NCBI RefSeq assembly: GCF_018350175.1
Contig: NC_058368.1
Coordinates: 54,376,001-54,440,000 of the forward strand
Reading direction: 5' to 3'
DNA: 64,000 nucleotides
Source of the DNA: Felis catus
Taxonomy: Eukaryota
This document shows, piece after piece, positions 22,281 to 59,551 of this stretch. Under the pieces are notes generated by a model. It was not told where the DNA came from. It saw nothing but the letters and a program-made list of their open reading frames with translations, and did no database searches. Numbering within the stretch: position 1 is the stretch's first letter; every line of letters begins with the position of its first letter. The position numbers were made by a program, and so were the translations under genes.

Positions 22281-22565
22281 ACCTCAACATTTCTATTTCT
22301 GAGCCTTTGGATTTTCTCCTGTACAGTATGCCAGGGAAGTTCCATATCTCAGACACACTGAATACAGGCCATTATTGAGACTAGGCTTCAATTAACCAAC
22401 CAAACTGTCACCAATTGCTACTCAAAATTTAGAGTAATTTGTGACTAATTTAAATCTAGAATCACAATGAAATCACCTATGGTTTTATTCAGACAAATCT
22501 AACCTTATGTTCCATCTCATTTGGCTATCATCTTCAGAAATCATTCATGCATATATTCCCCAGAC

Positions 22566-22778
22566 TTTTTAATTTTTATTTATTTTTGAGAGAGAGAGAG
22601 AGAGAGAGCGAGCACAAGTGGGAGAGGGGCAGAGAGAGAGGGAGACACAGAATCGGAAACAGGCTCCAGGCTCTGAGCCATCAGCCCAGAGCCCGACGCG
22701 GGGCTCGAACTCACGGAGCGCGAGATCGTGACCTGGCTGAAGTCGGACGCTTAACCGACTGCGCCACCCAGGCGCCCC
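22566..22778 (-). mobile_element. Can-SINE with young SINEC_Fc 5' half and old-type 3' half
   Basis: Young diagnostics (CGGAAACAGG, GCCATCAGCCC, CTGGCTGAAG, CTGCGCCACC); 3' ~90 nt match the neighbouring copy. Confidence 0.93.
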
Positions 22779-22783
22779 AAGAC

Positions 22784-22991
22784 TTTTTAATTTTTATTTA
22801 TTTTTGAGAGAGAGAGAGAGCGAGCACAAGTGGGAGAGGGGCAGAGAGAGAGGGAGACACAGAATCTGAAGCAGGCTCCAGGCTCTGAGCTGTCAGCACA
22901 GAGCCTGACATGGGGCTCAAACTCACAAACTGTGAGATCATGACCTGAGCCAAAGTAGGATGCTTAACTGACTGAGCCTCCCAGGCGCCCC
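22784..22991 (-). mobile_element. Can-SINE, older CpG-decayed copy
   Basis: Full body; outer TSD TTCCCCAGA(C/T)TTTT at 22556-22569 and 22992-23005. Confidence 0.94.
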
Positions 22992-23714
22992 TTCCCCAGA
23001 TTTTTATTGATATATATTCATGAGGTCTTATAAGCTCTTCAGCACATTCACTATATTTTACTGGATAGTGTATGTACAAAATCCTTTCTCTTGCTCGGAC
23101 ATTCCAGAATCTGAATTTTTAAAAAAATGAACCTGGAGGCAGTGAGGAGTGGTAGAATCTGGATAAGAAGTAAGGATAAGAGGCCTTCTTTGGGGGCACA
23201 ACTGATGAATGTTTTTAATGAAAGAAAAGCAGTTTACCTAGACACGTGAGAAGGTGGCTGCTTCTGGCAAGGGTGGTGTAAAACGGTTTTGGGGGAAAAT
23301 GTTTCTCAGACTTGTCTTTGCCCCGATGTTCTCATTCCAAGAATAAGGGCCGCATTCCTTTTAAACCAGTGCCCATCCTTGGTATGGAAGACTTGGTGAG
23401 TCAGGCATTTAACTAGCTTGTAAATTTGCAAATTACATAATTAGATTTGGGGTTTATCCTTAGCCATCATGCAGACAGAACAATGGCCCTCAAAAATGTT
23501 CATGACCTAATGCCCAGAACTTGTGAATTTGTTACCTTACCTGGCATTAGGACTTTGCAGATGCGACTAATGTGTTTTTGAGATGTAGAGATTACTCAGG
23601 ATTATCAAGACAGGCCCATTGTAATCACAAGAGTCCTTATAAGTGAACGTAGGAAGCATGAAAGTCAAGGTCAGAGTCAGAGAGAGAGATTTGAGATGGG
23701 ACTGGCTAACTTTA

Positions 23715-23829
23715 TTTTTTATTTTATTTTTATTTATTATTTTTTAATGTTTATTTTATTTTTGAGAGACAGAGTGTGATTGGGGGACGGGCTGAGAAAG
23801 AGAATCCAACTGAGGCACCCAGGCGCCCC
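23715..23829 (-). mobile_element. Can-SINE with large internal deletion
   Basis: Tail and CT part joined at AGAATCC/AACTGAGG to the 5' ~22 nt; ~115 nt of body missing. Confidence 0.9.
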
Positions 23830-23860
23830 CTCTTCTTCCTCTTTAAAGTTAGCCAGTCCC

Positions 23861-24080
23861 GGGGTGCCTGGGTGGCTCAGTTAGTTAAGTGTCTGACTTC
23901 GGCTCAGGTCATGATCTCAGTCTGTGAGTTCAAACCCCGCATTGGGCTCTGTGCTGACACCTTGGAGCCTGGAGTCTGCTTCGTATTCTGTGTCTCCCTC
24001 TCTCTCTGCCCCTCCCCTGCTCATGCTCTGTCTCTCTCTGTCGCAAAAATAAATAAAAACATTAAAAAAAATACATAAAT
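23861..24080 (+). mobile_element. Can-SINE, full length
   Basis: GGGGTGCCTGGGTGGCTCAGTTAGTTAAG head through A-rich tail. Confidence 0.95.
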
Positions 24081-24722
24081 AAAGAGGAAGAAGAGGCCAC
24101 TAACCAGAAATGTAGGTGAGCTCTAGAAGCTAGAAAAGAAAGGGGATGTATTCTCCCTGTAGTCTCCAAAAAGAACACAGCCCCGCTGACACACCTTGAT
24201 TTTAGCACAGTCTGACCCATTTCAGACATCTGATCTCCAGATCTGTAAAATAAAAATTGTATGTTGTTTCAAGCTATTAAATTTGTGGCGATTTGTTAGA
24301 AAAGGAAAGGCAAACTAAATACCTTCATGCTTTCCCTGCAGGGATTATTTCCAAGCCATCATAGAAGGCTTTCTGACTCCCTAGAAGTGCCTTGAGTTGG
24401 TGGTTAAAGTCTCTGAGGTTATCACTTTCGTTTTGTCATCTTTGCAGTCCTGTAAGTGAGCTTATCTCCTCTCCCTCACAACCTCTGTCATCACCACTGG
24501 TGTCATTGTGGTCATAAGCATCTGTCAGTTGATTACCAAAAGGCTTCCGTCCACTGGTATTTTATCCCACACCACTGTGGTGACTTCTAAATAATCACAA
24601 TGCCTGCATGACAGAGATTTCTAATGACGCATTTCTGCTGGACAAGGGGGAGGTCTTCCTTGTGTTCACCAAGTAACATCTTTATCCTTTAATCCCATTT
24701 TGAAGCTTTTGTTTCTTCCCTA

Positions 24723-35622: not shown

Positions 35623-35787
35623 TTGTTTAATGTTTATTTATTTTTGAGAAAGAGTGTGAGTAGGGGAGGGGCAGAGAGACACACACACTCAGCACAGAGC
35701 CCAACGTGGGGCTTGAACTCACAAACCACGAAATCATTACCTGAGCTGAATTTGGATGCTTAACCAACAGAGCCACTCAGGTGCCCC
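35623..35787 (-). mobile_element. Can-SINE with internal deletion
   Basis: Tail and head present; GAATC..GGCTCC segment missing; degenerate TSD TGGAAT.A.GTAA. Confidence 0.9.
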
Positions 35788-47615: not shown

Positions 47616-47835
47616 GGGGCGCCTGGGTGGCTCAGTCTGTTAAGCATCTGACTCTTGGTTTCGGCTCAGGTCATGATCTCACGGTTTGTGAGTTCGAGCC
47701 CTGCATTGGGCTCTGTGCTAACAGCACAGAGCCTGCTTGGGATTCTCTGTCTCCCCTCTCTCTCTGCCTCTACCCCACTCGTGTGCCCTCTAAATAAATA
47801 AATAAATAAATAAATAAACTTAAAAAAAATTAAAA
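47616..47835 (+). mobile_element. Can-SINE
   Basis: TSD AAAAA(T/C)TGTAGGTAA(A/G)GTCCT at 47595-47615 and 47836-47856. Confidence 0.96.
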
Positions 47836-48009
47836 AAAAACTGTAGGTAAGGTCCTGCTATAATTTACAACAGAGTATAAAAGAGTCAACTGACATTTCT
47901 TTGAGATTACAAATAAATTTTCCATAAATTAAAAAATTTCATGTTTACTGCTACTATCACAGTGAATTTATTTGCTAACTTCCTCCCTCAAATGATTTAT
48001 ATTTTAAAA

Positions 48010-48033
48010 GTTTTTTTTAATGTTTTCTTTATT

Positions 48034-48067
<34 letters not shown>

Positions 48068-48216
48068 CGAGCAGGGGGAGGGGCAGGCAGAGAGGGAGAC
48101 ACAAAATCTGAAGCAGGCTCCAGGCTCTGAGCCGTCAGCACAGAACCCCACAAACTGCGAGATCATGACTTGAGCCAAAGTTGGATGCTTAGATGACTCA
48201 GCTACTCAGGCGCCCC
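48010..48216 (-). mobile_element. Can-SINE with small internal deletion
   Basis: (GA)n segment, body, AGGCGCCCC head. Confidence 0.93.
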
Positions 48217-53191: not shown

Positions 53192-56100
53192 TCAGGATCC
53201 ACATATGAGTGAAAATATATGATATCTGTATTTCTCTGTATGACTTATTTCACTTAGCATAACACTCTCCAGTTCCATTCACATTGCTACAAAAGGCCAG
53301 ATTTCATTCTTCCTCATTGCCAAGTAGTATTCCATTGTATATATAAACCACATCTTCTTTATCCATTCGTCAGTTGATGGACATTTAGGCTCTTTCCATA
53401 ATTTGGCTATTGTTGAAAGTGCTGCTATAAGCATTGGGGTACGATGCCCCTATGCATCAGCACTCCTGTATCCCTTGGACAAATTCCAAGCAGTGCTATT
53501 GCTGGGTCATAGGGTAGATCAATTTTTAATTTTTTGAGGAACCTCCACACTGTTTTCCAGAGCGGCTGCACCAGTTTGCATTCCCACCAACAGTGTAAGA
53601 GGGTTCCCATTTCTCCACATTCTCTCCAGCATCTGTAGTTTCTTGATTTGTTCATTTTAACCACTCTGACCTGCATGAGGTGATATCTCGGTGTGGTTTT
53701 GATTTGTATTTCCCTGATAAGGAGTGACATTGAGTACCTGTTGGCCATCTGGATGTCTTTTTAGAAAAGTGTCTATTCATGTCTTCTGCCCATTTCTTCA
53801 CTGGGTTATTTGTTTTTCAGGTGTGGAGTTTGGTGAGCTCTTTATAGATTTTGGATACTAGTCCTTTGTCTGTCATTTGCAAATATCTTTTCCCATTCCG
53901 TCAGTTGTCTTTTAGTTTTGTTGATTGTTTCCTTTGCAGTGCAGAAGTTTTTATTTTGATGATGTCCTGATAGTTCATTTTTGCTTTTAATTCCCTTGCC
54001 TTTGGAGATGTGTCAAGTAAGAAATTGCTGTGGCTGAGGTCAGAGAGGATTTTTCCTGCTTTCCCCTCTAGGGTTTTGATGGTTTCCTGTCTCACATTCA
54101 GGTCCTTAATCCATTTTGAGTTTATTTTTGTGAATGGTGTAAGAAAGTGGTCTAGTTCCATTCTTCTGCATGCTGCTGTCCAGTTCTCCCAGCACCATCT
54201 GTTAAAGAGACTGTCGTTTTTCCATTGGATATTCTTTCCTGCTTTGTCAAAGATTAGCTGGCCATACTTTTGTGGGTCCAATTCTGGAGTCTCTATTCTA
54301 TTCCATTGGTCTATGTGTCTGTTTTTGTGCCAATACCATGCTGTCTTGATGATTACAGCTTTGTAGTAGAGGCTAAAGTCTGGGATTGTGATACTTCCCG
54401 CTTTGGTTTTCTTCTTCAAAATTACTTTGGTTATTCGGGGCCTTTTGTGGTTCCAAATGAATTTTAGGATTGCTTGTTCTAGCTTCAAGAAGAATGCTGG
54501 TGTAATTTTGATTGGGATTGCATTGAATGTGTAGATTGCTTTGGGTAGTATTGACATTTTAACAATATTTATTCTTCCAATCCATGAGCATGGAATGTTT
54601 TTCCAGTTCTTAGTATCTTCTTCAATTTCCTTCATAAGTTTTCTATAGTTTTCAGCATACAGATCTTTTACATCTTTGGTTAGGTTTATTCCTAGGTATT
54701 TTATGATTCTTGGTGCCATTGTGAATGGGATAAGTTTCTTTATTTCTCTTTCTGTTGCTTCATTATCGGTGTATAAAAATGCAACTGATTTCTGTACATT
54801 AATTTTGTATCCTGCAACTTTGCTGAATTCATGTATCAGTTCTAGCAGACTTTTGGTGGAGTCTATTGGGTTTTCCATGTAGTATCATGTCATCTGCAAA
54901 AAGTGAAGGCTTGACTTCATCTTTGCCAATTTTGATGCCTTTGATTTCCTTTTGTTGTCTGATTGCTGATGCTAGAACTTCCAACACTATGTTAAACAAC
55001 AGCAGTGAGAGTGGACATCCCTGTCGTGTTCCTGATCTCAGGGGGAAAGCTCTCAGTTTTTCCCCACTGAGGATGATATTGGCTGTGGGCTTTTCATAAG
55101 TGGCTTTTATGATCTTTAAGTATGTTCCTTCTATCCAGACTTTCTTGAGGGCTTTTATTAAGAAAGGATGCTGAATTTTGTCAAATGCTTTTTCTGTACT
55201 GATCGACAGGATCATAAGGCTCTTATCTTTTGTATTAATGTGATGTACCACATTGATTGATTTGCAAATATTGAACCAGCCCTGCAGCCCAGGAATAAAT
55301 TCCACTTGATCATGATGAATAAATCTTTTTATATGCTGTAGAATTAAATTTGCTAGTATCTTGTTGAGAATTTTTGCATACATATTCATCAGGGATATTG
55401 GCCTGTAGTTCTCTTTTTTTTTTGCTGGGTCTCTGGTTTGGGAATCAAAGTAATGCTGGCTTCATAGAATGAGTCTGGACGTTTTCCTTCCCTTTCTATT
55501 TTTTGGAACAGTTGAGAAGGATAAGTATTATCTCTGCTTTAAATGTCTGGTAGAATTCCCCAGGGAAGCCATCTGGTCCTGGACTCTTATTTGTTGGGAG
55601 ATTTTTGATAACTGATTCAATTTCTTCACTAGTTATGGGTCTGTTCAAATTTTCTATTTCTTCCCATTTGAGTTTTGGAAGTCTGTGGGTATTTAGGAAT
55701 TTGTCCATTTCTTCCTGGTTGTCCAGTTTGTTGGCATATAATTTTTCATAGTATTCCCTGATAATTGCTTGTATTTCTGAGGGATGGTTGTAATAATTCC
55801 TTTTTCATTCATGATCTTATCTATTTGGGTCCTCTCCCTTTCCTTTTTGAGAAGCCTGGCTAGAGGTTTATCAATTTTGTTTATTTTTTCAAAAACCCAA
55901 CTCTTGGTTTCATTGATCTGCTCTACTGTTTTTTTAGATTCTATATTGTTTATTTCTGCTCTGATCTTTATTATTTCTCTTCTGCTGGATTTGGGGTATC
56001 TTTGCTGTTCTGCGTCTATTTCCTTTAGGTGTTCTGTTAGATTTTGTATTTGGGATTTTTCTTGTCTCTTGAGATAGGCCTGGATTGCAATGTGTTTTCC

Positions 56101-58831: not shown

Positions 58832-59068
58832 GGGGCGCCTGGGTGGCGCAGTCGGTTAAGCGTCCGGCTTCAGCCAGGTCACGATCTCGCAGTCTGTGAG
58901 TTCGAGCCCCGCGTCAGGCTCTGGGCTGATGGCTCAGAGCCTGGAGCCTGTTTCCGATTCTGTGTCTCCCTCTCTCTCTGCCCCTCCCCCGTTCATGCTC
59001 TGTCTCTCTCTGTTCCAAAAAATAAATAAACGTTGAAAAAAAAAATTAAAAAAACAAACAAAACAAAA
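58832..59068 (+). mobile_element. Young Can-SINE (SINEC_Fc-type), full length
   Basis: CpG-rich, long tail, perfect TSD AAAACATCCAAACA at 58818-58831 and 59069-59082. Confidence 0.97.
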
Positions 59069-59339
59069 AAAACATCCAAACATTCTAGCACTTTTTTCTG
59101 CTGTTCTCTCTGTCTGAAAATCCCTTTTACATCAATTTTACATATTGAAATCCTAACCACATACTGAGGATACTTTTATTAATTTGTCTAAGTCTTCCTC
59201 TTTCATTAATTTTTTTCAAACTTCCCCTCCAGAAAAAAAAAATCACATTTTAACTGTTTTGTGCTCTTAATGGCATTTGTGTGTGTGTGTCTTTTTTTTT
59301 TTTTTGACAGTTCAGTTGGCAACTACATGAAAGCTACCT

Positions 59340-59551
59340 TTATTTAATTTTTTTTTATTTTTTTTGAGACAGAGAGAGACAGAGCATGAACAGGGCAGGG
59401 GCAGAGAGAGAGGGAGACAAAGAATCTGAAGCAGGCTCCAGGCTCTGAGCTGTCAGCTCAGAGCCCGATGAGGGGCTCGAACTCACTGACTGTGAGATCA
59501 TGACCTGAGCTGATGTCGGACGCTTAACTGACTGAGCCACCCAGGCACCCC
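59340..59551 (-). mobile_element. Can-SINE
   Basis: Full body ending in CCAGGCACCCC. Confidence 0.95.

Follow-up and report, generated by a model that had tools for sequence, protein, structure and literature searches.

Insertion of two Can-SINEs at a shared target and inversion of the spacer between them

By comparing the short spacer between two head-to-head Can-SINEs with the sequence on either side of the pair, we find two opposite-strand insertions at one TTT/AAA site, with swapped TSDs and a flipped spacer, and this arrangement is supported by the observations below. The pair lies within the window, the whole 64,000-nt stretch of DNA that was analysed, with SINE(−) at 23715–23829 and SINE(+) at 23861–24079 and 31 nt between their heads. 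The layout reads A – tail – SINE(−) – rc(B) rc(A) – SINE(+) – tail – B, where A and B are the two halves of the target and rc is the reverse complement (Table 1). The host sequence may be an old MLT1-type LTR (putatively MLT1D, an ERVL-MaLR solo LTR), and no second copy of it was found within the 64-kb window.

The reverse complement of the spacer (23830–23860, 31 nt) matches the two flanks exactly, its first 17 nt at 23698–23714 and its last 16 nt at 24080–24095, each at a single site in the window. Since the two matches add up to 33 nt and the spacer has 31, they overlap by 2 nt, at its centre. Each outer match runs one base beyond the TTT/AAA centre (23714 and 24080), hence the overlap; the match of half A reaches 23714 and that of half B both 24080 and 24096, leaving unambiguous duplications of 16 nt for A and 15 nt for B. 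The overlap may be due to AAAT-type tails by chance or to staggered nicks. The extra base at each outer match could originate from a SINE tail, and the additional G/C pair 23829/24096 could belong either to the target or to a SINE head. The 22-nt arms adjoining the spacer form an inverted repeat, 91% complementary, and the inverted segment itself is 31 nt long and exact. In 100 block shuffles, no exact inverted 16-mers were found less than 300 nt apart, the low-complexity filter of the shuffle script having kept, in the real window, the left-flank (A) match only and dropped the purine-rich right (B) match. A chance origin of the spacer/flank match is ruled out by this result.

Table 1. Features of the locus, with positions in the window
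Feature	Positions	Strand	Basis
Half A of target, outer TSD copy of left insertion, ends TTT	23698..23713	+	Exact unique match to reverse complement of spacer 23844–23860
A-rich tail of left Can-SINE, T-rich on +	23715..23763	−	Sequence; alignment with 22 other copies
3′ remnant of left SINE (CT-rich), joined to head over ~110-nt deletion	23764..23807	−	Alignment
Left SINE head (22–26 nt), A box with T at diagnostic site	23808..23829	−	Inverted repeat, 22 nt, 91% complementary to 23861–23882
31-nt spacer: two inner TSD copies abutting at TTT/AAA, inverted	23830..23860	−	Reverse-complement match to flanks
Right Can-SINE, full length, A-rich tail, tentatively IIA-like	23861..24079	+	Alignment; diagnostics from PMC4084570
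Half B of target, outer TSD copy of right insertion, starts AAA	24081..24095	+	Exact unique match to reverse complement of spacer 23830–23845
Downstream host sequence	24097..24330	+	Presumptive MLT1-type label

We also scored each SINE for a TSD of its own and for one swapped with its partner. The own-TSD scores of the two SINEs were 3 and 3, compared with swapped-TSD scores of 17 and 17. Among the other SINEs of the window 13/20 have an own TSD with a score of at least 9, and the tail-to-tail control pairs scored 16/7 and 14/6 for own against 4/3 and 4/5 for swapped TSDs. The tail-to-tail SINE pairs at 47616–48216 and 58832–59551 (gaps of 239 and 321 nt) are unflipped, and one member of each keeps its own TSD.

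The head-to-head elements are of the same family and in opposite orientation, with TSDs mismatched within and matched across elements, as in retrotransposon-mediated inversion (RRMI), and when the spacer was turned back by script two ordinary direct TSDs were obtained. Whichever strand is read, CTTT/AA stands in the middle of the spacer, so that the L1 endonuclease (consensus as in PMC3215922 and PMC11702581) could use the site in either direction; both spacer ends adjoin SINE position 1, as in full-length TPRT 5′ junctions. Both SINEs bear the marks of TPRT (an A-rich tail, a duplication within 7–20 bp and a T-rich/AA site), with two tails and duplications of 16 and 15 nt. From two canonical full-length 5′ junctions it follows that two insertions occurred; twin priming of a single RNA is ruled out by the presence of two heads and two tails. 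Three claims of the first-pass annotation hold: that the spacer is the exact reverse complement of both flanks joined (17/17 on the left and 16/16 on the right, now with the 2-nt overlap), that two opposite-strand insertions share one TTT/AAA site, and that the spacer is inverted with swapped TSDs, since its re-inversion restores direct ones. Both TSD pairs are perfect (33/33), yet the SINEs differ from the window majority by ~6–14%, a slightly surprising combination whichever model is adopted.

Type and age of the two SINEs

The left SINE measures 115 nt and the right 219 nt. At the A-box diagnostic site T is present in both heads and G in 3/23 aligned copies. G at this site marks the youngest felid subtype, IIB (SINEC_Fc1; PMC4084570), and the T in both heads therefore places neither in IIB. 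The subfamily typing proposed in the first-pass annotation revealed no informative subfamily difference between the 22–24-nt heads, and gives no support to the exchange of heads suggested there. With the positions of PMC4084570 mapped onto our alignment by inference, the right SINE is without the subfamily I insertion near 36, has by eye a T near position 51, and differs at 3/7 positions from the subfamily II motif near 118. In the left SINE the regions of the IIA diagnostics (near 36, 51 and 118) are missing. The right SINE is tentatively IIA-like (SINEC_Fc2-like); for IIA, PMC4084570 gives a time span that opens about 35 million years ago and reaches into recent lineages.

CpG sites are kept at 2/14 positions in the right SINE and 1/4 in the left. 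Non-CpG differences from the window majority number 10/156 on the right and 8/57 on the left. This contrast falls short of significance (Fisher p=0.095) and hints only weakly at a greater age of the left remnant. The heads differ at 3/24 positions, 22% of 153 background pairs being equally close, and the 3′ parts at 8/39, where 40% of the 153 pairs are equally close. Arm homogenisation between the two heads was not found when these 3/24 mismatches were set against the 153 background pairs, and since heads and 3′ parts are no closer than background, neither homogenisation nor a common origin is supported. The left SINE retains just 22–26 nt of head, and differences from half to half are mostly CpG decay. 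Typing of SINE halves by seemingly diagnostic motifs was dropped because these motifs are alternative CpG decays; the apparent subfamily differences of the halves, which would bear on chimerism between the two SINEs, likewise read as CpG decay.

Deletion in the left SINE

Aligned with a single gap, the left SINE is short of 110 nt of body; with two gaps the loss divides into 100+10 nt, and 8 nt of the CT run are missing as well. The body loss noted earlier is thus seen, its size being revised from ~115 nt. The deletion junction lies 22–26 nt from the spacer. In intact copies TCGG is common to the A-box end and to the body motif at the two-gap junction, and is subject to CpG decay; the deletion is probably bounded by this 4-nt TCGG-type microhomology, the one-gap alignment being the alternative. 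The fold-back energy is −79 kcal/mol now, against −179 to −202 kcal/mol with full-length left SINE proxies (5/5). The idea that the deletion relieved a near-palindrome is in keeping with this approximate halving, but the deletion need not have come later: its junction may itself mark one of the two switches that made the flip, and a single two-switch event could then explain flip and deletion together. Another SINE with an internal deletion (about 43 nt, with a GT run at the junction) is found at 35633–35787 on the minus strand.

Origin of the inversion

We put at about even the chance that two insertions occurred in sequence and were followed by a later template switch or microhomology-mediated repair. 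Two felid Can-SINEs would have been inserted successively by L1-driven TPRT, on opposite strands of the same palindromic TTT/AAA site, giving an intermediate (A-tail-SINE(−)-A-B-SINE(+)-tail-B) that would form a ~200-bp imperfect inverted repeat with a 31-bp spacer of two TSDs. During later replication or break repair, the growing strand would jump to the opposite strand, copy the spacer backwards together with the heads on either side of it, and make its return switch via SINE–SINE homology. One switch may have taken place at a 4-nt TCGG-type microhomology (SINE positions ~22–25 / ~123–126), which would leave the ~110-nt deletion in the same event; alternatively, the deletion would be a separate event. 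Order, timing, switch points and head exchange are what we infer under this sequence of events. The differences between the 3′ parts and, weakly, the greater divergence of the left SINE fit separate insertions, and re-use of the same target sites by CanSINEs in felids has been described (PMC4084570). Template switching often leaves homogenised arms (PMC8755829), and the lack of homogenisation between the heads counts against a later switch. The first-pass annotation had proposed recombination or template switching. A template switch or microhomology-mediated repair is our preferred reading. A 31-bp segment is too short to make looping recombination at the heads likely, simple looping recombination having been argued to be impossible at such small size (PMC8755829). 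A crossover far out in the SINE arms is a possible route to the flip.

The same end product is expected from sequential insertions with a later switch and from two main rivals. The flip may have been coupled to the second insertion, a route absent from the first-pass annotation and in our view rather unlikely. Here ORF2p would cut the same site beside the resident SINE, and the reciprocal end, extended on the new cDNA head, would fold back onto the resident SINE at a TCGG-type microhomology. Opening and fill-in of the hairpin would follow, with annealing to the cDNA through SINE homology. Both flip and deletion would then date from the insertion, and no double allele with a direct spacer would ever have existed. 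Three de novo insertions with genomic DNA inverted at the reciprocal end provide a precedent, and the model published for them comprises resection, fold-back at 6–14 bp homology, cleavage, fill-in and joining (PMC11702581 Fig. S9). The break would fall exactly at the spacer, the deletion needs no extra event and, weakly, the left remnant fits as the older element. However, direct fold-back of the TSD end to head position 1 finds no microhomology (0/7 lengths tested), and the route therefore requires the end to be extended briefly on the new cDNA beforehand; a left head formed as an inverted copy of the right head by such direct fold-back is ruled out on the same ground. The precedent also stems from cultured cells over-expressing L1 rather than from germline SINEs, and an insertion-coupled flip could occur only once at a locus, while a later switch would have had millions of generations in which to arise. 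The concerted double insertion offered earlier as an alternative is retained, although we regard it as improbable. Both strands would be nicked at TTT/AAA, each end would prime its own SINE cDNA, and each cDNA would be joined to the second-nick end of the other reaction, with TSDs swapped from birth and a separate deletion. In tumours, synchronous L1 insertions whose second strand is synthesised in trans lead to reciprocal inversions and to exchanged (hetero-)duplications (bioRxiv 10.1101/2024.08.27.596794), and the two SINEs share one site and, by their CpG retention, the same broad age class. Yet two RNPs would have to act together at one site, and an exact blunt central re-join and a further deletion would be required. 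The cases published concern somatic L1 at sites far apart, and in their 3′ parts the two SINEs resemble each other no more than background pairs do.

Public sequencing runs were compared with the locus by word sharing, which we do not count as evidence. At least 0.98 of 195 sampled words are present in 20/24 listed runs, the other 4 being unindexed, and word sharing is blind to spacer orientation; 14 of the 20 are possibly source DNA, and the other 6 come from 4 studies and two organisms (5 + 1). An empty allele alone would lose ~43 words, so these 20 runs probably carry the filled site. That the real allele has a direct spacer, flipped by the assembler at the inverted repeat, we consider very improbable. 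The locus is itself an inverted repeat, and an un-flipped allele would lose just ~5/195 of the orientation-blind words (P(≤4 lost)=0.3–0.5). But the spacer arms are only 22 nt long and 91% alike, with a unique deletion junction beyond the left one, and from this we infer that a ~60-nt read spans the whole ambiguity. In addition, 2 runs, both possibly source DNA, hold 0.99 of the words (P(≤2 lost)=0.06–0.14 if un-flipped).

Relation to known inversions

Swapped TSDs are a marker of post-insertion, retrotransposon-mediated inversion, with deletions in 12/49 events (PMC2603318). The locus is a very small, clean case of this known class of retrotransposon-driven inversion, set apart by its shared target site, the inverted segment being the duplicated target itself. 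As in Alu-RMI (PMC2603318), there is an inverted SINE pair with TSDs matching only across elements and an accompanying deletion. Alu-RMI events have mean sizes of 769–1934 bp; with one target site common to both SINEs, the unique inverted segment here is 31 bp and comprises nothing but the two TSDs. For Alu-RMI a second species served to establish ancestral state and chimerism, both of which are presumptive here.

In size, exact reverse-complement copy and abutting inverted repeats, the locus also resembles human–chimpanzee microinversions, ape events of 17–33 nt between inverted repeats that are attributed to template switching or MMBIR (PMC8755829). Their repeats measure 3–75 nt, whereas our arms are retrotransposon heads, and the present event, unlike theirs, includes a deletion and has an ancestral orientation readable from the TSDs alone. 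The term SINE is absent from the main text of PMC8755829. In yeast, spacer inversion by intermolecular template switching has been described (PMC8604942). L1 reciprocal-end inversions (PMC11702581) share with our locus TPRT hallmarks at both breakpoints and inverted target DNA, and synchronous L1 exchanges (bioRxiv 10.1101/2024.08.27.596794) such hallmarks together with exchanged duplications. The cases in the available text of these two sources, however, are somatic or engineered L1 events, mostly at distant sites, and include no germline shared-site SINE pair. Double insertion in Drosophila is treated in PMC5932611, flipped spacers being absent from its available text, and a review of dog retrotransposons (PMC13756887) gave no match for head-to-head or inversion. 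In the literature searched, which lay mostly outside subscription journals, no paper was found on a shared-site head-to-head pair with an inverted target. A scan of metagenome contigs for the spacer pattern gave no matches, and a look-alike search among the other genomes of the scan gave no windows.

Human head-to-head full-length Alu pairs at 24–36 bp spacing occur in excess (3,464 pairs; PMC3215922). The authors regard this excess as possible evidence of an uncharacterised insertion mechanism and suggest that a nucleosome or the L1 endonuclease docks at the 5′ end of Alu; an analysis of two abutting TSDs or of spacer orientation is absent from the available text. Our pair is similar in head-to-head orientation and in spacer length (31 bp), but is formed by felid tRNA-derived SINEs instead of Alu. 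By analogy, this suggests that the human peak at 24–36 bp may represent a spacer of TSD1 + TSD2 at a TTT/AAA site usable on both strands. It is conceivable, if somewhat doubtful, that the insertion machinery itself flips the target, by second-TPRT fold-back or by two synchronous TPRTs, and does so generally at shared-site pairs. If this were true, head-to-head SINE pairs sharing a palindromic endonuclease site would often be born with an inverted target. The Alu peak would then consist of two abutting TSDs, a large share of its thousands of pairs being flipped without an un-flipped ancestor, and such pairs would preserve, as fossils in the germline, traces of ORF2p-break fold-back or synchronous insertion, processes described elsewhere in tumours and cultured cells (PMC11702581; bioRxiv 10.1101/2024.08.27.596794). 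The share of flipped spacers would rise with element age under later template switching and would be flat from birth under insertion-coupled flipping, which bears on whether the L1 machinery flips DNA in the germline. The locus is probably neutral. The empty target survives in its spacer; no outgroup is needed to read the ancestral orientation, and the locus documents its own history.

Surrounding window

In the window, which is mammalian DNA of felid type, 27 copies or remnants of Can-SINEs were listed from BLAST matches. Of 26 neighbouring SINE pairs, 14 lie less than 1.5 kb apart, 11 of these being direct and 3 inverted, which agrees with the scarcity already known for inverted pairs. One tandem pair (22556–22991, minus strand) comprises a young IIB-type copy and an older copy, which differ at 23/125 of the first aligned columns and are identical over the next 93 except for a 6-nt CT gap. 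A duplication of ~90 nt in place of a normal TSD suggests that the insertion copied or converted the 3′ end of the resident SINE. An L1-like ORF2 remnant in two frames lies at 53904–55461 on the minus strand, and a 210-aa piece of it, the one ORF among 5 scanned to give a match, matches Pfam RVT_1 at 4.4e-30.
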